Assembly: GCA_002269645.1 (NCBI GenBank) | Contig: NIVC01000995.1 | Location: 324,100-388,099 of the forward strand | Length of the DNA stretch: 64,000 nucleotides | Direction of reading: 5' to 3' | Origin: Macrostomum lignano | Lineage: Eukaryota | Shown here: piece after piece, positions 53,410 through 64,000 of the stretch | Layout of the letters: the number at the start of each line of letters is the position of its first letter | How positions within the stretch are numbered: the stretch's first letter is position 1 | Program-made: the position numbers and the translations under genes | Notes under the pieces: generated by a model | Databases searched by the model: none | Told to the model about the DNA's origin: nothing | The model's input: the letters and a program-made list of their open reading frames with translations, nothing else

Positions 53410-54273
53410 TGATGTGTTCCTTATTACCCGACTTTCGATAATCAAGGAACAATCACTTCTAGCTCAACAGCTAGGCAACCCAGTAAGTCAAACGAAGGTA
53501 TTCAATTACCTTTAATCCGGATTTGAATTTCTTGAGTAGTTCTCGCTAGGAACTTGTCAGTAGATCTCGTAGATCAGGCGCCTTGATTCTTCAGTTGCTC
53601 TGGTCCTGGTTCCTCTTGTACTTCCGATAAGTTCTTCCGGCCGGTATCTTCCGTCAGGACCAATCAGAGGCCTCGTAGCAACAATGGGTACCCTGCGCCA
53701 AACTGCGGTCTAAATTAAGCCTCCTTCTTCTAGCAGTGCCTCTATGCACTCTAGGTATAGCTCCGGAAACCACTGATAGTCCTCTAAGATCTATCAGGGG
53801 CAGTCCTTCTGGAGACTGCAACCAATGGAGTCTAAACAGACTCAAGAGTCTCAACAGACTCAATTAGACTCAAGTCTCAATAGACTTGAGCGAGACGTCT
53901 CTAACACAACGGGCGCAAATAAGGAAGGCTTACCGCAACAACTCGACCGAGTCTCGATTGACTTGGTAGATCAGGAAGTCCTCCTAAGGCTTCCTCTTCG
54001 GAGCGCTCCTCTTCCGTGGGGAGAATGGCTCCGGTACCGCTTCAGATCGCTTGTATTTATAGACAAGTTTTTGATCCAAAATAGTATCATGACAATTCAC
54101 GTGTTGCGCTAAAAGGGGAAAATGGCTCATGGCGTATTATTCTGGTAACATCTTTTTCTGGTAGCGTGATTCATTCAAAGCTTAGGCGCACATGCGTGTA
54201 CTTACTTACTTATAGTAGTATTATACGATTATCTTCTTTTTTCCTTTTTTAACGGGAGGTAGAACACTCTACA
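53410..54273 (-). repeat. 3' LTR (864 bp)
   Basis: Matches 63138-64000 by eye except for a 1-nt indel in a T-run. Starts TGTAGAGTGTTC and ends GAACACATCA on the - strand; TATAAA lies at 54056-61 (-). Confidence 0.9.
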
Positions 54274-54277
54274 AAAT

Positions 54278-54288
54278 CTCCCTTTTTT
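54278..54288 (-). other. Polypurine tract candidate
   Basis: AAAAAAGGGAG, 4 nt upstream of the inferred 3' LTR start TGTAGAG. Confidence 0.6.
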
Positions 54289-54453: not shown

Positions 54454-54828
54454 TCAAGTGGCATCAGGTTTGATCCGACACCACTTTCGAAACGTGCAGT
54501 CTCGCGGCATACTATTACATAAGGGGCATCCTATAACGCCCCTACTAGCGGTTTGCTTCAAACAGTGCATGCAAATAAAATGTTGGTGGTTACAATATTG
54601 AAACGTGCGCCAAGAATAACAATAGGCACATTGTCGCAAACTATCTCTACAGAGGGGACAATTCTGCCATGGCTGAATATAATGTGAATCGCTTAAACAT
54701 TGTCCGCAAACTTTATGTTCGTTGATGCAAATAGTCGGTGGCTTGACAGCCAAGTCATCAGTTAAACATATCGGGCAGTCATATAGCTGCTGAGGCTGGG
54801 GCGCCTGTTTTGACAGTGCGTTGCCCAT
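54454..54828 (-). CDS. Retroelement accessory protein: N-myristoylation motif plus two RING fingers (124 aa)
   Basis: The first ATG (54828; A at -3, G at +4) gives MGNALSK; the track's start at 54840 is a TTG. Two C-x2-C...C-x3-H-x2-C-x2-C...C-x2-C motifs follow. Lies between pol stop and PPT. Confidence 0.8.
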   Translation of the reverse strand: MGNALSKQAPQPQQLYDCPICLTDDLAVKPPTICINEHKVCGQCLSDSHYIQPWQNCPLCRDSLRQCAYCYSWRTFQYCNHQHFICMHCLKQTASRGVIGCPLCNSMPRDCTFRKWCRIKPDAT

Positions 54829-54948: not shown

Positions 54949-57900
54949 CTAGCGTGGTCGTAGGTTGTAGCCATGTGGCTGGCTCACATCTGTCGTTTGA
55001 GTCTCCTCGTGCTTCGTCGCGATGTGGCGGTTCGTTGAACGCGTGCGATCAGCGTTGTCTAATGTCGGTAGAAACGTCGCTGTGTCAGTGTTGATCTTCT
55101 TTAGTCGATGAATGTGTACGTAGAACTGGTGCTGATGTGGATCTTGTACATTAGCCAGGCGTGCCGTTGTTGGTGACGTTAGTTGGACCACTCGATAGGG
55201 TCCTTTGTACTTCTGTGCATGTTTATGCGTCTGCTGTGGCGGGTAGTGTAGGTAGACGATGTCGCCGGCCGTCAGGGTTGTCGATCTCGCGTCGTTGCCG
55301 GTGGTCAGAGCCACCTGGTTGTCAATGTTGTGCTTGGCGATCTTCCATGCGAGGTGTAGTTGCGTGACGAATTTCTGAATGGAAGTCGGTACTTCCACGT
55401 ACTGCGATGGTAGCAATTGCTGTGCGAGCAGATTCGGCGGTTGGAAGTCTCGTCCAAACATTAGGAAGAATGGCGTATTGTCCGTTGATCGATGAATAGC
55501 GCTGTTGTAGGCCATTGTTACAGATTGCAGGTAGATGATCCAGTCTTCCGGCTGTTGGTGCGCGAAATGTGTAATCATCTCGTGCAGGTTGCGGTGAAAC
55601 CGTTCAACCATGTTTGCCTTCGGATTGTAGGTCGATGTGTAGATCTGCGTAATGTTGAGAATCCTTACGACTTGCTGAAACAGTTGCGATGTAAACTGCG
55701 ATCCGTTGTCCGATGTGAGGTTCTTCGGCGTGCCGTACTTGCAAATGATTTCGTTGAAGAAACTCATTGCCACTGTCTGAGCTGTGATGTCCGGTATCGG
55801 TATGGCGATAGCAAACTTCGAGAAGATATCCAAGGCGGTTAGAATGTAGGTGTAGGCGATGCCCTGGAGACAGCTCGGTGGTAGCGGTCCGGTGATGTCG
55901 ATGCTTAGACAGTCCATTGTAGTCGACTTCGGAATGGACTGTAGCTGCGGTTTCTGTCGTCGTCCTGTCTTTGATGCAGCACATGAATGGCAGTTGTTGC
56001 AATACTGCTTGATGTCGCCGTACATAGTTGGCCAAAAGTAGTATTGTTCCACTCTCGCGATGGTCTTTGCTGCCGACAGGTGTCCAGCGAGTGGGTTGTC
56101 GTGTAGCTCGTTGAGAATTGCTTGCCGAAACGAATATGGTATGTAGATCTTGGGTTTATTGTCGCTCATCCAGTAGAGCCGTGACTTATTGATTGTTAGG
56201 TGTTGTCGTTGCTTGCGTAGGAATTTTCGTTCCATGGGACTGAGTTTGATGTTCTTGTCGTCGTCTTTAACCGCTTGGTAGAAGTTGTCGCGCTCGGTTT
56301 CATCCACCAACTCCTTGATGTTAGGGATTGGATGAATGGCGTTGACTTCATAGGCTCTTGACAGGGCGTCCGCGGCTTTGTTGGTAATTCCTGGTTTGTA
56401 GACGAGTTTGTAGTTGTAATCCTGGATCTTGAGTGTCATTCTGATGAGTCGGTTGTTGGTCTGTCCTTTTGTAGTTACGACGTAGGTCAATGGTGCATGA
56501 TCCGTGCGTACTATCGTCTGTATTGGAGAACCATAGATGTAGTAATGAAACTGTCGCAGGGCGAACAAGACTCCTAGTAGCTCTCGTTCCGTAGCTGACC
56601 ACTTTGTCTCATTTGGTTTGAGTGCTCGACTGACGTAAGCAATAGGTCGTTCCTTCTTGTCCTCGGTTTCCTGTAGTAGGACTGCTCCGAGTCCCGTTCC
56701 TGAGGCGTCTGTCTCGATGATGAAGGGCTTGTCGAAGTCCGGATGCTGTAGCAGTGCGTCTGATGTCAGCTGTCGTTTGATTTCGTCGAAACTTTCCTGT
56801 TGTCTCTGTGTCCAGTTGTCTTGCTTCCATTTGTCGAACTTGAGCAGGTCGTACAGTGGCTTTGCTGTCTTTGCGAAGTTAGGTAAGAACTTCCTGAAGT
56901 ATTGCGCAAGTCCAAGGAATGATTGGACCTTCGTTATACTGGTTGGCGTAGGAAACTTCTTCACCTTTTCCACGTTGTCTGGGTCCGGTGAGATTCCTTT
57001 GGCTGTCACCTGATGTCCCAGGTAACGCACGTTGTCTCGGAAGAATTTGCATTTAGTTGGTTGTAGCTTCAGACCTTGGCGTTGAATGAGCGCTAGGGCC
57101 TTCTCCGTAGCTTCGTAGAGTCGCTCGAAATCCTCTCCGTAAGCTAAAATGTCGTCGACATAGTGCAGCAGGTTCGTGCATCCTGCTAGCATGTATGCTG
57201 TTAGTCGACTCATCGTTGCTGGGCTGTTGCTAAGTCCCATCGGCGATCGATTGTACTCGTATACTTGTCCATTGTAGGTTTTGAAAGCCGTGTACTGTCG
57301 TGACTCTTTCTCGATTTCAATTTGCCAAAATCCATGACGTAGGTCGAACACCGTGAACAATTTTGCCGTGTTGAGCTTTGCTAGTAGTTCGGAGATCTTC
57401 GGTAGGCTTTGCTGATCCGTCGGTATGTACTTGTTCAACAGTCTGAAGTCGCATACGAGTCGTCTTTCGTTTGTCTCCTTCTTCTGTACCAGTAGGCACG
57501 GTGAGGAGTAAGCCGAAATAGCTTTGCTGATGATGCCGTGCTTTAGCATTTTATCGATGATTTCGTCAAAGTGTTGTTGCAGATGCTTGGCGATCGGGTA
57601 CGGCTTGCACTGAATTGGTTCCGTGTGCGGCAGAAGTTTGATTTCCTGTTTGATGTCCTTGGCTCGTCCGATGTCGTAATCATGATGGCAGAAGGCTTCG
57701 TTGTACTTCCACAACAGCTGTCGAACTTTCCTCTTTTGCTGTTCCGTAATCGGGCTGTCATCCAAATTGATCTTCTTTTGAAATTCTTCCTCTGTTAGTC
57801 GTGGAGTCGCTTGTTCAATCAGCATAACCGATGCTTGGGTGTTGAGATGACCGATGCACATTCCTTGTCGTAGATGAACCGTTTCTGTGTTCGGGTTGAA

Positions 57901-60648
57901 GATTTGTACTGGCAGTTGCTTATCCTTTGCAACCAGCACTAGTGCCGTAGGCATCATGATTTGATGTTTTGCCGTGACTCTCCTGTGTGGATCAAATATC
58001 ATTGCTTCATCTGCCGCGCTGGTCGTTTTCGCTCTGACCCAGCATGCGCTTTCAGGCTGGATAATGACATCTTGCTGCAGAGTTACTTTCGGTAGTACTC
58101 GAATCTGGTTGATCAGCGGTTGCTCCACCGTGTCGATCCTAAACGTTTGCTTGTTGAAGTCGAAGGTCAATGGTAGTTGAAGCTGCTTGAACGTGTCGAT
58201 TCCAACGATGACGTCTTGGTTTGGTAGTCTGTCGATGATGTACGTCGGGACCGTCAGCTGTTTATTAGCAATTTTCAAGTCGATATCTGCTTTTCCTAGG
58301 ATGTTGAGTGAATGTCCTCCTGCTCCTGCAACTGCGATTGCTGCTGGTCGTACCGCGAGTCGTAGCTTGTTGCATAATTGTTGCGAGATGACTGTGATCG
58401 AGCTGCCTGAATCCAGTAGTGCTCGACATGGCAAGTTGTTGACAATGACCTGAGCCATTGCTTTGCCAATCTCGGCGTGTAGCGTACAGACGTAGTTTTC
58501 CGGCCATTTTGGCTCGTGCTGTTCTGCTTGATAGTTGGGTGGTTGTATCCTTGGTGCCGTTGGTGTTGTCGGAATCGATGGATATAGCCGCGTTGCTAGT
58601 GTCGGTTGCCCTTGAACCTCACAATGTGCAGTTTCTGTTAGTTCTAAACTGTTGTCGCTTTCCGTTGTCGTTCTTTGCATTATGGCATTCACTGTCTTCT
58701 TAGCTCTTGGACAAGTTTGACTGAAGCACCGTACGATCGATGAAATGATGAAGATTGCCGTGACAATCCACACAATGCAAGCACCGTAGAAGATGAATCC
58801 TTGATAGAGACTGCCTCTTCCATTGAGCAGCTCCCAGAAGCTATTTGTCCAAAATGATTTGATGGCGCTGTCCATTGAAACAAGGACGGGAAATCTTCCT
58901 GTCCCGGTTCCTTTGTCCTTTCTTGTGAACAGCTGGTGAATCATCTTGCGTTGGGTGATGAACGCTTGCAAGAAGTCGTTGATCGTCCATCCTGGTGTTA
59001 TCTCGTCAAGTTGGATATCGGCGAATGGCGTATACTTCGTTCTGTTGAATCGGATTTTCAAATCCTCCATGTCGTAGTTTTCGTCGACGATTACTTCCGG
59101 TTCTGTGACGTTTGCTGTCGTTCCAGTTGTTTTGATGACGTGTAGTGCATTGTCCAGTTGATAGTAGTTTACTGCCGTGGTGCAAGGTCTCGGTATTGCG
59201 GTGCCAACGATGATGTTGTGTACCGTGTCCAAGAATCCCTGAATTCGTTTTCCTTCGTAGAACGCTTCAATCCTTGGCTTATCGTAGCAGGTTGTTGACG
59301 TGTTTGACGGCAAGATGTTAAAGTGCTGTATCGGCGTGCACTTGTATATCAACAGATGCTCGTATATTGGAACTGCCAAAACGTTCGTCATTCCGGTGAT
59401 TTTACGAAAAGTCATCGTAGGGTTGACATAGTAGTTTTGTCTGGCATAATTTAAGTTGATTGCGTGCATTTTGCAAGTTAGCTGGACCAGTGTTCGATGC
59501 AAGTGGTTTAACTGGTTGTGTAGATTGTGATCCAAAGCCGTTATCTTTGCTGACAACAGCCGGTTTGACACCAGTTTGGGACGTTCGATGTCACGTCGTC
59601 TTCTATTCTGTTTTTCTTGTTGCTGATACGTTCCATTGATGATTGCCAAGAAGGTTTGTTTGTCTTCATCCTTTACGTAGACTGGTATCTCTTGTTCCGA
59701 GATGAATAGTGTCTTGTCTGTATCCTTGCATTTCAGTTTTTGCTCGACTGGTTTCTTTTGAAACGTCAGTGCCAAGTCTCCTGACTTTGCCAAAAACGTA
59801 TTTGACAGTAGTCCTCCTTCAACTGTGTGATACTTTTGAAGCTTGCAGTCAATTTCCGGCTCAACTTCCCACGCGAAGAAGTATTGTCGTGATTTGTACG
59901 GTTCCTCATAGTGTGATTGTGCTCTGTGCTCAATCTGCCATCGATAGTCTTGATGATATGTTGGACTCAGTGGTAGACTGTGTAGTTCTTCCTTCCGTAG
60001 AATCGGCGTTGGACACCATCCTTCACTGTATCGACATTCGCTTAGTTGCAGCTGTAACGATTCCATTTTCTCGTACGGATTGTAGTAGAATGGAATATTT
60101 CTGATCAAGTAGCTGTTGCGTGCCATATATTCTTTCCATTTTCCGAAGAAGTGAATATATCGACCGTTGGCTGAATTCTTTGTTCTGAACAGCTGTGCGT
60201 TGCCGACCTTCTCATCTGGTTCCAGTTCACCATCCTTTGAAAATAGTGTTTGATTCCATTGTAGGCATTCCGCGTGCGACACATGTAGCTCATGTTGTTT
60301 AAATCGGATCCGGTTCCATTGTCCGCGCCAAACTTTTTCCACCAGGTGCTTGTCTCTGAAGCATACTATCCCGTGTTGTCGATGCTTCTTGATGTTAGCC
60401 TTGTAGAGATCGAGTGTAATCTTCTTTGGTTTTGTCTGGTTTGTCTTGAAGTAACTGCATTTGATGTCGGTTGGTATCTTGTAGATCATCGGTTGGATAT
60501 GCGCATCCGTTGGACAAATCATTGGCTTTTCCGTTGCCGTTGCTTTGGCGACTACTGCTATCAGTAGTATCACGATGATCCAGAATAGCCAGTTTTTCCA
60601 CTTCTTGGATTTTGCCGTTGTCCTTGCTGCATTGGCTGCGATCGCCAT
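54949..60648 (-). CDS. Env-Pol polyprotein (signal peptide, class III-like glycoprotein, TM, protease, RT, RNase H, integrase), 1899 aa
   Basis: Uninterrupted ORF. Signal peptide WLFWIIVILLIAVVAKA; furin RRRR|D aa349-352; TM aa617-639; LLDSGS aa744-749; YVDD aa1163; DAS...ERE...DH RNase H; H-H-C-C zinc finger, IDITGP, SDNGSQF, VERFH and GPY integrase motifs; C-terminal YNLRPR. Confidence 0.95.
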   Translation of the reverse strand: MAIAANAARTTAKSKKWKNWLFWIIVILLIAVVAKATATEKPMICPTDAHIQPMIYKIPTDIKCSYFKTNQTKPKKITLDLYKANIKKHRQHGIVCFRDKHLVEKVWRGQWNRIRFKQHELHVSHAECLQWNQTLFSKDGELEPDEKVGNAQLFRTKNSANGRYIHFFGKWKEYMARNSYLIRNIPFYYNPYEKMESLQLQLSECRYSEGWCPTPILRKEELHSLPLSPTYHQDYRWQIEHRAQSHYEEPYKSRQYFFAWEVEPEIDCKLQKYHTVEGGLLSNTFLAKSGDLALTFQKKPVEQKLKCKDTDKTLFISEQEIPVYVKDEDKQTFLAIINGTYQQQEKQNRRRRDIERPKLVSNRLLSAKITALDHNLHNQLNHLHRTLVQLTCKMHAINLNYARQNYYVNPTMTFRKITGMTNVLAVPIYEHLLIYKCTPIQHFNILPSNTSTTCYDKPRIEAFYEGKRIQGFLDTVHNIIVGTAIPRPCTTAVNYYQLDNALHVIKTTGTTANVTEPEVIVDENYDMEDLKIRFNRTKYTPFADIQLDEITPGWTINDFLQAFITQRKMIHQLFTRKDKGTGTGRFPVLVSMDSAIKSFWTNSFWELLNGRGSLYQGFIFYGACIVWIVTAIFIISSIVRCFSQTCPRAKKTVNAIMQRTTTESDNSLELTETAHCEVQGQPTLATRLYPSIPTTPTAPRIQPPNYQAEQHEPKWPENYVCTLHAEIGKAMAQVIVNNLPCRALLDSGSSITVISQQLCNKLRLAVRPAAIAVAGAGGHSLNILGKADIDLKIANKQLTVPTYIIDRLPNQDVIVGIDTFKQLQLPLTFDFNKQTFRIDTVEQPLINQIRVLPKVTLQQDVIIQPESACWVRAKTTSAADEAMIFDPHRRVTAKHQIMMPTALVLVAKDKQLPVQIFNPNTETVHLRQGMCIGHLNTQASVMLIEQATPRLTEEEFQKKINLDDSPITEQQKRKVRQLLWKYNEAFCHHDYDIGRAKDIKQEIKLLPHTEPIQCKPYPIAKHLQQHFDEIIDKMLKHGIISKAISAYSSPCLLVQKKETNERRLVCDFRLLNKYIPTDQQSLPKISELLAKLNTAKLFTVFDLRHGFWQIEIEKESRQYTAFKTYNGQVYEYNRSPMGLSNSPATMSRLTAYMLAGCTNLLHYVDDILAYGEDFERLYEATEKALALIQRQGLKLQPTKCKFFRDNVRYLGHQVTAKGISPDPDNVEKVKKFPTPTSITKVQSFLGLAQYFRKFLPNFAKTAKPLYDLLKFDKWKQDNWTQRQQESFDEIKRQLTSDALLQHPDFDKPFIIETDASGTGLGAVLLQETEDKKERPIAYVSRALKPNETKWSATERELLGVLFALRQFHYYIYGSPIQTIVRTDHAPLTYVVTTKGQTNNRLIRMTLKIQDYNYKLVYKPGITNKAADALSRAYEVNAIHPIPNIKELVDETERDNFYQAVKDDDKNIKLSPMERKFLRKQRQHLTINKSRLYWMSDNKPKIYIPYSFRQAILNELHDNPLAGHLSAAKTIARVEQYYFWPTMYGDIKQYCNNCHSCAASKTGRRQKPQLQSIPKSTTMDCLSIDITGPLPPSCLQGIAYTYILTALDIFSKFAIAIPIPDITAQTVAMSFFNEIICKYGTPKNLTSDNGSQFTSQLFQQVVRILNITQIYTSTYNPKANMVERFHRNLHEMITHFAHQQPEDWIIYLQSVTMAYNSAIHRSTDNTPFFLMFGRDFQPPNLLAQQLLPSQYVEVPTSIQKFVTQLHLAWKIAKHNIDNQVALTTGNDARSTTLTAGDIVYLHYPPQQTHKHAQKYKGPYRVVQLTSPTTARLANVQDPHQHQFYVHIHRLKKINTDTATFLPTLDNADRTRSTNRHIATKHEETQTTDVSQPHGYNLRPR

Positions 60649-61368
60649 TCGTTATCTTCCATGTCCGCATCATATTCTTTCGGTTGTTCCATTGGCTGAT
60701 CCAGGCGGAAGGCTTCTGATTCGCTTTGCTTTTTGGTTATTTCATTATCTTCGTCTGCGGCTTCTTCCGATGTTTCCGTGTTTCACTCCATTGCGTTGTA
60801 TCTTTTCTCTGTCTTGTAGTCGACCGTTTGAATATAGGCTTCACCATTTCGTTTGTATCGGATCTCGTAGCATCGTCGCTGTCGGAACTCGCTTTCTTTT
60901 CACCTGTTCTTTTCCATTTCTTCATCTTTCCATTGTATTTCGTAGCCTTGATCGCTGTCGGAACTTAGATTCTCCGCTCCGGTTCTTCCTGCATTCCTCT
61001 TTCGGCTTGGTAGTCGTTCGTGTCATCACGCACCTCGCAGTCGTGGTCGTTGCCGTAACTTCTACATTCTTCTTCTTCTTTCATTTCTTTGTCTTTCATG
61101 CTCGTTTTGTCGTCATCCACTGTTGTCGATTCATAGTTGTTTTCTTCGCCGGTTTTCATCTTTTCTTCGTTGCCGATGTCGCTCTCCGCCTCCTCCCTTG
61201 TCTTGTGATTTACTTTCTTCCTGTTTTCTCTGCTGTCTCCGGTGGTCTCTTTTAATTTGATCATTTCGTTTCATCGTCTCTTCTGTTTGTCAGTGTTGTC
61301 CTCGTGCGTCGTCTTCTTTTCGATCAGCTGATGTCAAGTTCCGGACTGTGAAGTCCATTTCCAAGTCG

Positions 61369-62427
61369 TCAATTGTGAACACTTGCTTTCTTGCTTTCAT
61401 TTCCGGTGTGAACGTGATGGCATTCGCGTATCGTGGCATTGCTTGCGTCGGCTGTCTTGTGTGTATCTGACGTTGCGTGGCCTGTAGCCATTACTTCTGA
61501 AGCGGCCTTCGTTTCCGAAGCGGCCATCATTTCCGGAGCGGTCATTATTTCCGAAGCGTCTATCATTTCCGAAGCGTCTTTAGCCTGTTGTTGGCGATTT
61601 TGATATTGCTGCCATGGTTTCTGCGGCTTCTGATTGTTGAATATCTGTCGCGGCTTGTCGTATCTTGTTGACCAATGAGGACAATTAATCTGATAATGTC
61701 CTTCTTGTCCGCAGTAGTAACATCTGGCTGAGGCTTGTTCATTTCGTCTTTTTTGTTCGGCGATAGCAGCTGTCTGGTGCTGCATTAACTTGTTTAGTTG
61801 CTGCGTCAGTTTCTGCACTTCATTGTTGCCTGTCGTCATTAATGGGGCACTGGCTTCCCATTGCATTCCGCAACGCAAAAGGTCTTCTTCGGTTTCGATA
61901 TTTTCACGCAAAAGTCTATCCCGAAGTGACGGCTGTGCGTTGTTTATTACGTGCAGGATGAGGTTTTGTTCACGATCCATCAATCGTTGTCTTTCTCTGG
62001 CGGCCAATTCTGCCGCTCCCAGTGGTGGTTGGTCCGCAGCTTGCAGCGGTGGCTGATGCAGTGCCTTAATTATCTGGCGGATATCGTCCACAAAGGCGAG
62101 GAAGGATTCTGTTGCTTGCATCCTTCTGTTATGCAACTTGTGCAGCAGCACTGATCTGTTTGTGCCGCAACGGTTGAAATGCGCGCGCAGTTGAATGATT
62201 AGTGCTGGATAATTTTGCTGTGTTGCCGCATCCAGCTTGCCGTAAATTTCTCGCGCAGTACCTTGGAGAAGAGGTGGCAGCAGCTGTGCCTTCTCTGGAT
62301 TTTGTAGGTTGTATTCCCTACATACCAGGTCAAAATGGTCGACAAATGTGTTAAAATCTTTCTCCATCGAGAAAGTACCGACCGTTTCTTTGATGTCTCT
62401 GTGTACCGTTGGATTGCGCCGCGCCAT
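61369..62427 (-). CDS. gag: Gag (capsid-like domain plus CCHC zinc knuckle)
   Basis: F..F...F..VC....LLPPLLQGTAREIY...L...F capsid-like N-terminus; CYYCGQEGHYQINC knuckle at 61681-61722. The C-terminus may be frameshifted. Confidence 0.9.
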   Translation of the reverse strand: MARRNPTVHRDIKETVGTFSMEKDFNTFVDHFDLVCREYNLQNPEKAQLLPPLLQGTAREIYGKLDAATQQNYPALIIQLRAHFNRCGTNRSVLLHKLHNRRMQATESFLAFVDDIRQIIKALHQPPLQAADQPPLGAAELAARERQRLMDREQNLILHVINNAQPSLRDRLLRENIETEEDLLRCGMQWEASAPLMTTGNNEVQKLTQQLNKLMQHQTAAIAEQKRRNEQASARCYYCGQEGHYQINCPHWSTRYDKPRQIFNNQKPQKPWQQYQNRQQQAKDASEMIDASEIMTAPEMMAASETKAASEVMATGHATSDTHKTADASNATIRECHHVHTGNESKKASVHN

Positions 62428-63117
62428 GTTGTTGATAGGTAGAACGGTAGTTCAAGATCTGGATCGATTTGTAACGGATCGTCCAGTGTGGTGTTTGCCT
62501 CGGAATAAACCTCGACTGTAACGAATTGCCTTGTGGTGTCGATTTGTTATTCGCTGGCCTCGGATGCGGTGTGGCTTGCTGCCACTGGTTGTCCTCAAAT
62601 GAACTTGTTCTGTTCGCTTGCTGATTTCGCACTTATGCGGCGTCCCGCAAAGTGTATCTTCAAGTTGAAGTGGACTTGTCTTCTTGCTTTGCAAAGTCTT
62701 TTTCTCTTCTTTGACTCTCTCTCTTTTGTCAATTAACTCTGCTCTCCACGAAGTTTCAATTAATTTCGGTTTTGTTTTAGTTTTTGTGCCGGCAAAATGT
62801 TTCAGTTATTTTTTGTTTGTTTTGCGTCGACGATTTTTTATTTTGGTTTGTTTTCAGTGTACCGACGAAGTTAATTTCGGTTTTGTTTTAAACTCACACT
62901 TGCTCGAGCTCGTCAAAACAAAATTTAACACGCGTGCTCAAACTGTACTCAAATTTGACAGGTGCTCAAACCTGTACACCAAATTTTACTCGAGTTTCAA
63001 AACGTAACGGACTTAAAAAGTGTTAACTCTAACACGTGCGCGCAAAATTAATGAAGTCGCTCTGTCGTCACTTTACAATAGCTTGGCCAGGCTATTGCTC
63101 AAGGTTTGAGTAGTGCC

Positions 63118-63135
63118 GAGAGGGCGAGATCACCA
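63118..63135 (-). promoter_or_regulatory. Primer-binding-site candidate
   Basis: TGGTGATCTCGCCCTCTC begins 2 nt after the 5' LTR ...CA; cognate tRNA not identified. Confidence 0.5.
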
Positions 63136-63137
63136 AT

Positions 63138-64000
63138 TGATGTGTTCCTTATTACCCGACTTTCGATAATCAAGGAACAATCACTTCTAGCTCAACAGCT
63201 AGGCAACCCAGTAAGTCAAACGAAGGTATTCAATTACCTTTAATCCGGATTTGAATTTCTTGAGTAGTTCTCGCTAGGAACTTGTCAGTAGATCTCGTAG
63301 ATCAGGCGCCTTGATTCTTCAGTTGCTCTGGTCCTGGTTCCTCTTGTACTTCCGATAAGTTCTTCCGGCCGGTATCTTCCGTCAGGACCAATCAGAGGCC
63401 TCGTAGCAACAATGGGTACCCTGCGCCAAACTGCGGTCTAAATTAAGCCTCCTTCTTCTAGCAGTGCCTCTATGCACTCTAGGTATAGCTCCGGAAACCA
63501 CTGATAGTCCTCTAAGATCTATCAGGGGCAGTCCTTCTGGAGACTGCAACCAATGGAGTCTAAACAGACTCAAGAGTCTCAACAGACTCAATTAGACTCA
63601 AGTCTCAATAGACTTGAGCGAGACGTCTCTAACACAACGGGCGCAAATAAGGAAGGCTTACCGCAACAACTCGACCGAGTCTCGATTGACTTGGTAGATC
63701 AGGAAGTCCTCCTAAGGCTTCCTCTTCGGAGCGCTCCTCTTCCGTGGGGAGAATGGCTCCGGTACCGCTTCAGATCGCTTGTATTTATAGACAAGTTTTT
63801 GATCCAAAATAGTATCATGACAATTCACGTGTTGCGCTAAAAGGGGAAAATGGCTCATGGCGTATTATTCTGGTAACATCTTTTTCTGGTAGCGTGATTC
63901 ATTCAAAGCTTAGGCGCACATGCGTGTACTTACTTACTTATAGTAGTATTATACGATTATCTTCTTTTTCCTTTTTTAACGGGAGGTAGAACACTCTACA
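63138..64000 (-). repeat. 5' LTR (863 bp visible; ends at the window edge)
   Basis: Copy of 53410-54273; flanks diverge immediately outside TGATGTG. Confidence 0.9.

Follow-up and report, generated by a model that had tools for sequence, protein, structure and literature searches.

The 64,000-nucleotide stretch of Macrostomum lignano DNA analyzed here (the window; contig NIVC01000995.1 of assembly GCA_002269645.1, positions 324,100 to 388,099) ends in a long terminal repeat (LTR) retroelement that runs on the minus strand from position 64000 to 53410 (10,591 bp) and has LTRs of 863 and 864 bp, a primer binding site and a polypurine tract. Pfam recognized a zinc knuckle in Gag, followed by protease, reverse transcriptase (RT), RNase H and integrase in the Ty3/gypsy order. 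The element is placed in Ty3/gypsy (Metaviridae) by this domain order and by the part of a published survey available to us (PMC13524379), our own RT tree having been built without named references. Its env lies between gag and pol, an ectodomain resembling herpesvirus glycoprotein B (gB) is enclosed between hydrophobic segments and near-identical copies are present in the genome, as in the GAG-ENV-POL errantiviruses. We describe three short motifs in the predicted cytoplasmic tail of Env that resemble viral late domains, the signals binding ESCRT, the endosomal sorting complexes required for transport.

58573..58587, minus strand: LYPSI, ALIX-type late-domain motif (sequence match)
58552..58563, minus strand: PTAP, TSG101-type late-domain motif (sequence match)
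58531..58542, minus strand: PPNY, NEDD4/WW-type motif (the third residue is N, T, I or G among copies)

The three motifs, noticed in the first-pass annotation, were found on the minus strand at these positions and read jointly as LYPSIPTTPTAPRIQPPNY, residues 689–707 of a 1,900-residue frame. The cluster lies about 45–60 residues past the second transmembrane helix and about 40 residues ahead of Asp747, the catalytic residue of the protease, and P[TS]AP, PPxY and YPx[LI] have no further match in the whole Env-Pol frame. The suspicion that such a cluster is unlikely by chance held: all three motifs co-occurred in 8 of 500,000 shuffles of the 71-residue tail. Their assignment to the cytoplasmic tail of Env also stood, since hydropathy and domain order predict a cytosolic, flexible part of a structural protein, as befits late domains. 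The Env part is organized as follows.

60523..60603, minus strand: first hydrophobic segment, signal/anchor, residues 17–43 (hydropathy)
58810..60522, minus strand: Env ectodomain, class III fold like herpesvirus gB and nyamivirus G (structure model, Pfam)
59593–59604, minus strand: furin-type RRRR, matching the furin consensus
58711..58809, minus strand: second transmembrane helix, residues ~615–647 (hydropathy)
58504..58716, minus strand: cytoplasmic Env tail, about 71 residues, ending at a conserved Trp-Pro

Pfam gave a match to a Monjiviricetes fusion protein in Env that was below the cut-off. Folding of the ectodomain from the single sequence reached a mean predicted local distance difference test (pLDDT) of 28.9, and this model was replaced by one from a 55-sequence alignment (pLDDT 82). 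The best match of the latter in the PDB was gB of Kaposi's sarcoma-associated herpesvirus (E 2.4e-22, TM-score 0.46), and nyamivirus-like glycoproteins were among its top viral fold matches; Env is therefore taken to be a class III fusogen. Judging from hydropathy, the two helices would place both Gag and the tail-Pol part on the cytosolic side.

The window element belongs to a family (family A) whose tail regions matched 40 of 40 scored copies, out of 75 candidates, at 96–100% identity; thus family A spread recently. The selection set comprised 44 loci of this family; seven were excluded because of indels, and the remaining loci represented 17 distinct tail sequences, with the caveat that these copies are related to each other. 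None of the 10 motif-defining sites varied in at least two sequences, whereas 26 of the 60 other tail sites did (Fisher p = 0.010). At the same time, six of the 10 motif codons varied synonymously, and in PPxY the third residue was N, T, I or G while both prolines and the tyrosine were fixed. Relative to the window copy, the ratio of nonsynonymous to synonymous polymorphism (pN/pS) was 0.03 in the motifs, 0.61 in the upstream tail and 0.06 at the start of the protease. Hence, conservation of the motifs against a variable background, which the first-pass annotation had named as a check, was borne out within the family, and the pattern of codon changes indicates that the motif residues are under purifying selection.

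A search with the ectodomain of family B found more distant families at 22–29% identity, of which 20 loci were read, and all env-bearing loci were sorted into eight families, A to H. The RT sequences grouped seven of them into three lineages, AB, CDE and FG (identity of 80–84% within and 34–44% between lineages); 5 of 50 loci were missed in the final RT tree and in the env-less control described below, and the RT of family H was not recovered. The tails are 60–97 residues long, contain 10–24% proline and are mostly unalignable between lineages. Their canonical motifs, in order, are the following.

Family A: LYPSI-PTAP-PPNY
Family B: PTAP-IYPKI
Family C: PSAP-LYPTL
Family D: PSAP
Family E: PSAP
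Family F: LYPKI
Family G: PSAP-IYPTI
Family H: no canonical motif

Compared with expectations from composition-preserving shuffles, P[TS]AP was present in six of the eight family tails (0.23 expected) and [LIM]YPx[LI] in five (0.04 expected), and PSAP/PTAP was the most recurrent 4-mer in these tails. Counted per lineage, each motif was found in three of four (P = 2e-4 and P = 1e-6, respectively). The density was 12 motifs in 605 tail residues, none in 4,400 residues of ectodomain and one in 6,536 residues of Pol. Across relatives, the motifs thus recur over three deep lineages on an otherwise unalignable background. The general signal of the tail is P[TS]AP together with [LIM]YPx[LI], and the three-motif cluster is specific to family A. 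The order of the motifs is not constant: in family A YPxI comes before PTAP, and in families B, C and G YPx[LI] comes after P[TS]AP. This reversal means that one motif or more originated anew. Such reordering is turnover with retention, expected of late domains that work independently of position (PMC8402826, seen in part). In one copy of family B (L033) PTAP is replaced by PNAP.

To look beyond this genome we used a HMMER search which gave 187 hits; all counts from it refer to the best 150 that were listed. Among these, 74 records matched GP2, 19 of them were dropped because the record contained no transmembrane helix, and 55 further tails remained. The query itself contained the motifs, therefore we relied only on the 38 tails that passed on the ectodomain alone. 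In these distant relatives the signal was weaker but persisted: any motif was present in 10 of the 38 (1.7 expected), P[TS]AP in five (0.27 expected) and YPx[LI] in four (0.86 expected), and none of 14 decoy patterns was enriched. Some of the 10 motif-bearing proteins may come from the same genus as the host. An apparent enrichment of PPxY in the full set (6 of 55 tails) was not upheld in the unbiased 38. As a control within this genome, nine protease-bearing families without an upstream transmembrane helix were examined over the (up to) 90 residues that precede the protease; none had a motif there, and their upstream parts had two motifs in 2,521 residues overall; the families were screened for the upstream helix only, not for env genes downstream. 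An earlier control of 28 protease-only records, seven of them with a motif, was rejected as not a true control, the query being motif-containing: two of the seven were family D of this genome, four had an upstream hydrophobic segment (maximum hydropathy 1.72–2.44) and one was a fragment.

The first-pass annotation had contrasted Env-Pol with a Gag in which it saw no late-domain motif, and both parts of this statement had to be abandoned. The contrast between Gag and Env-Pol was produced by several small frame breaks in the window copy between Gag and Env (about 60,600–61,600, near the end of the contig). Contigs from four runs of four studies depart from the window copy at the breaks, all in the same way, hence the breaks either arose in assembly or are peculiar to this copy; the cluster at 60600–61600 is probably an assembly error. 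Open frames of 2,460–2,538 residues hold 11 of the 88 match rows, with Gag and Env together in the copies read, in two family-A copies the frame continues without a break from Gag to Env, and copies of families B, C and F have frames of 2,458–2,866 residues containing the Gag knuckle, Env and Pol. Intact copies encode a single Gag-Env-Pol polyprotein. The sequencing runs listed as containing the sequence included none of RNA. The LTR-to-LTR joint was the sole one seen in the contigs of the four runs, a result with which splicing would still be compatible. In family A, a public gene model (P0003) omits exactly the motif-bearing part of the tail, probably as an artefact of prediction, and a joint of the P0003 type was absent from the contigs of these runs. 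As to motifs, Gag of the window copy has YPAL, a YPxL match, at residue 81. This match maps to the capsid-like region. Five other families were checked and had no YPx[LI] ahead of the last zinc knuckle, therefore YPAL is probably structural. None of six Gag starts checked (the first four methionines of each) begins with MG. The remaining parts of the element are listed below.

63138..64000, minus strand: 5' LTR, 863 bp, starting at the end of the window; short frames identical in both LTRs
63124..63135, minus strand: primer binding site, a 12-mer identical to that of the catalogued Mlig_errantivirus_2
61369..62451, minus strand: Gag frame, first ATG at 62427; CCHC knuckle at residues 244–259; YPAL at residue 81; N-terminal MG absent
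60652..61368, minus strand: acidic Gag-to-Env linker with several small frame breaks in the window copy; open in other copies
54949..60651, minus strand: open frame for Env, protease, RT, RNase H and integrase, 1,900 residues; C-terminal part of the Gag-Env-Pol polyprotein
58162..58503, minus strand: aspartic protease (Pfam), catalytic Asp747; candidate N-terminus at the Pro of Trp-Pro
57007..57486, minus strand: RT core, RVT_1 (Pfam)
56416..56814, minus strand: RNase H (Pfam)
55621..56142, minus strand: integrase, zinc-binding and core domains (Pfam)
54454..54828, minus strand: accessory Cys-rich RING-like open reading frame (ORF), 124 residues, MG start; shortened allele of a longer ORF
54277..54288, minus strand: polypurine tract (sequence)
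53410..54273, minus strand: 3' LTR, 864 bp

The LTRs differ by one indel, which makes an ungapped count of their mismatches an artefact. Both LTR lengths, the total length and the primer binding site 12-mer are those of the Mlig_errantivirus_2 row in the supplement of PMC13524379, as far as that source was accessible. UniRef has a protein with the label Macrostomum lignano that shares 99% identity with the element; these two agreements mean that the element is already catalogued. A word-index search for homologs returned just two proteins, both of the element's own family.

Several observations were made beside the main subject. Between pol and the 3' LTR, elements of the A/B lineage have a cassette with one to three ORFs that are Cys-rich and double-RING-like (window 54454–54828, minus strand; L031 8307–9723; L079, L082, L086 and L087), and none was found in the 3' stretches fetched for families C to H. 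The window ORF begins with a myristoylation-like MG...S, and many copies are truncated or interrupted. Its look-alikes in the atlas were for the most part RING proteins encoded by large DNA viruses; arenavirus Z, at 0.87, was no more than a lead, and a literature search for RING ORFs in gypsy elements found nothing. We considered the ORF as a budding driver comparable to arenavirus Z and rejected it: it contains no late motif, MG is missing in the B and B2 ORFs, and many copies are shortened or interrupted. Families C and D have small ORFs downstream of pol with a hydrophobic segment followed by a palmitoylation-like run of Cys (L075 3476, plus strand; L071 4508, minus strand). The number of CCHC knuckles in Gag is three in families F and G, two in D and one in A, B and C (L055, L061, L053). 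PPxY is also present in the other cytosolic stretch, after the zinc knuckle and before the first helix, as PPPY in family B (L031, residue 590), PPAY in B2 and PPRY in D, and family C has a second PSAP between the knuckle and this helix (loci L031, L090, L053 and L051); none was seen there in A, F and G. The flank at window positions 1–50000 contains many unrelated minisatellite arrays with units of 8–44 bp, and most ORFs there look like repeat artefacts. Contigs C2121, C1130 and C87 of G000 hold clusters of multiple diverged family-A copies, perhaps nested arrays or regions resembling clusters of PIWI-interacting RNA loci.

A Trp-Pro pair is present 30–37 residues ahead of the catalytic Asp in seven of the eight families, and Trp-Pro is enriched in the distant tails (16 of 55). 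Bonds between an aromatic residue and Pro are typical sites of retroviral proteases, so this pair is the likely N-terminus of the protease. A cut there would leave all motifs on the Env subunit.

On these grounds, we consider it fairly probable that the motifs are genuine late domains, and that the Env tail calls in ESCRT for the severing of a particle which is assembled from a polyprotein threaded through the membrane. Along the chain, Gag is followed by the signal/anchor, the gB-like ectodomain, the transmembrane helix, the tail and the protease-RT-RNase H-integrase part; Gag and the tail-Pol part would be tied to the membrane from the cytosolic side through the two helices. The helices would thereby substitute for the myristoylated matrix domain that seems to be missing from these Gags, and each subunit would contain the tail as a flexible linker in the cytosol. 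The predicted ligands are TSG101 for PTAP, ALIX for LYPSI and, in family A, a ligase of the NEDD4 type for PPNY, so that ESCRT-III and VPS4 would be brought to the neck of the particle budding at the plasma membrane or at an endosome. The protease would probably free itself at the conserved Trp-Pro, the motifs remaining on the transmembrane subunit of Env. Two of the candidate partners are encoded by the host: a TSG101 UEV domain was found (E 6.7e-39; L091 1252–1992, minus strand), as was an ALIX V domain which retained the KFY segment and is directly followed by a PSAP of ALIX's own. Prediction of a complex of the host UEV domain with a 37-residue tail peptide (score 0.15, mark 0.34) is evidence neither way. 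An engineered precedent exists, as an ESCRT-binding motif placed on a spike tail suffices for budding (PMC10121106, seen in part).

Several results weigh against this interpretation. The host UEV domain differs from human TSG101 at two positions, the equivalents of Tyr63 and Phe142, which we take to be residues of the PTAP pocket. The signal is not universal: family H has no canonical motif, nor have 28 of the 38 distant tails. Of the cluster proposed at first, the presence of all three types is real in family A but it is not general, because PPxY occurs in the tail of one of the eight families (0.47 expected), and its frequency in the distant tails (2 of 38, 0.63 expected, P = 0.13) was not significant. 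The families are related, so counts of families are not independent. Within family A, one copy has PPAP, and all four non-motif prolines of the tail are invariant as well, hence the constraint could be partly general. In the engineered system, the late domains of HIV p6 and Ebola virus VP40 on the spike tail gave little or no particle release, and p9 of equine infectious anaemia virus gave about tenfold less release than a cellular motif (PMC10121106, seen in part).

The motifs may instead bind ESCRT factors or ubiquitin ligases for the sorting of the polyprotein to endosomes or multivesicular bodies or for the degradation of surplus Env, with no scission of a neck. All the selection and enrichment results fit this explanation equally well, a single frame would imply that Env is made 1:1 with Gag, and for one membrane receptor, sorting by ALIX via a YPXnL motif is reported (PMC3341166, seen in part). 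We nevertheless regard it as unlikely, since P[TS]AP, YPxL and PPxY gathered in a flexible linker are the late-domain signature of Gag in murine leukaemia virus (MLV) (PMC4848597, PMC8402826, both seen in part), the part of the polyprotein representing Gag has no comparable cluster, and membrane scission is needed if the fusogen is to sit on a particle.

Alternatively, YPx[LI] could be kept as an aromatic-Pro site of the protease or as a YxxPhi signal for clathrin adaptors, P[TS]AP then being the sole ESCRT motif. YPx[LI] precedes Trp-Pro by 7–8 residues in families C, F and G, where it could double as a cut site, and the bond within it is of the kind that retroviral proteases favour. In families A and B, the distance is 24–27 residues, and Trp-Pro is itself the candidate site in seven of the eight families. 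In MLV, the roles of LYPAL as a cleavage site and as an ALIX ligand can coexist. Tyrosine motifs of retroviral Env tails do act with clathrin adaptors (PMC1592117, seen in part). Tyrosine motifs without Pro (YxxPhi) were not enriched here, however, either in the family tails (one of eight, 1.8 expected) or in the distant ones (14 of 55, 15.9 expected), nor were acidic dileucines in the tails, which favours ALIX over clathrin adaptors. The ALIX pattern, a hydrophobic residue before Tyr and L or I at +3, is kept in all five families with YPx[LI], and this alternative is quite improbable. That the motifs are functionless matches which arose by chance in a proline-rich linker and were then inherited is largely refuted and hardly credible: the high proline content of the tails, the absence of the motifs from most distant relatives and the invariance of non-motif prolines speak for it, but it is contradicted by the composition-preserving shuffles, the decoys, the contrasts between regions, the counts per lineage, the changed order and the pN/pS of 0.03.

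Several known systems resemble the element in some respects. In certain nematode elements, gag, env, pro and pol reportedly share one continuous frame that encodes a nyamivirus-like Env. The closest known systems are Mlig_errantivirus_2, which shares the lengths and the primer binding site, and the other GAG-ENV-POL errantiviruses of HSV/gB type (Chary and Hayashi, eLife 2026, PMC13524379), with a gB-type Env; the gag-env-pol order is reported there for Nematoda, Bryozoa and Platyhelminthes, and nematode endogenous retroviruses with flipped env/pol order are cited (Sacco et al. 2022). The main text of that paper has no match for 'late domain', 'ESCRT' or 'RING', and neither the tail motifs nor the RING ORFs are described in the parts consulted. 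Canonical late domains are on record for nucleoproteins. The described carriers of late domains further include Gag, matrix and more internal proteins (PMC8402826, PMC4848597). Gag of MLV likewise unites the three canonical classes (PSAP, LYPAL and PPPY) in one linker region of a polyprotein (PMC8402826, PMC4848597), but its motifs belong to the matrix and p12 parts of a Gag which buds without Env, whereas those of the element lie between the transmembrane helix of Env and the protease. Foamy viruses are similar in that their Gag lacks a domain for membrane targeting and their release requires Env (PMC3705266); their PSAP is in Gag and their Env is a separate protein, in contrast to the element, whose motif is on the tail of an Env that forms part of a fused polyprotein. 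Glycoprotein tails have been proposed to link to ESCRT as surrogates of matrix (hartmanivirus GP2, hantavirus Gn; PMC6261641), in the case of hartmanivirus through a speculated indirect ALG-2 motif. The link in the engineered spike with EABR, a region that binds ESCRT and ALIX, is artificial (PMC10121106), and differs from a natural canonical set of late domains in a retroelement Env tail. Our literature searches, which could not reach most subscription papers, found no description of late domains in the Env tail of an errantivirus.

Altogether, the element itself is already catalogued, and the function of the selected late-domain motifs on its Env tail is proposed from sequence. Gag-Env-Pol errantiviruses may represent a distinct particle design, in which the helices of Env replace the matrix domain and the Env tail, not Gag, is the ESCRT-recruiting late domain, its motifs being repeatedly gained, lost and reordered; we give this broader view an even chance of being right. 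If true, it would be evidence at the sequence level that errantiviruses of non-insect invertebrates really bud as enveloped particles. For the envelope-carrying gypsy elements of invertebrates, intact Env genes and recent copies are documented in the survey (PMC13524379, seen in part). As to whether these elements leave cells, selected late domains point independently to a stage that is extracellular or vesicular, and they name host factors for knock-down in a tractable flatworm. A natural case of late domains on the tail of a fusogen, combined with a design based on one polyprotein, would add to the known strategies of assembly.

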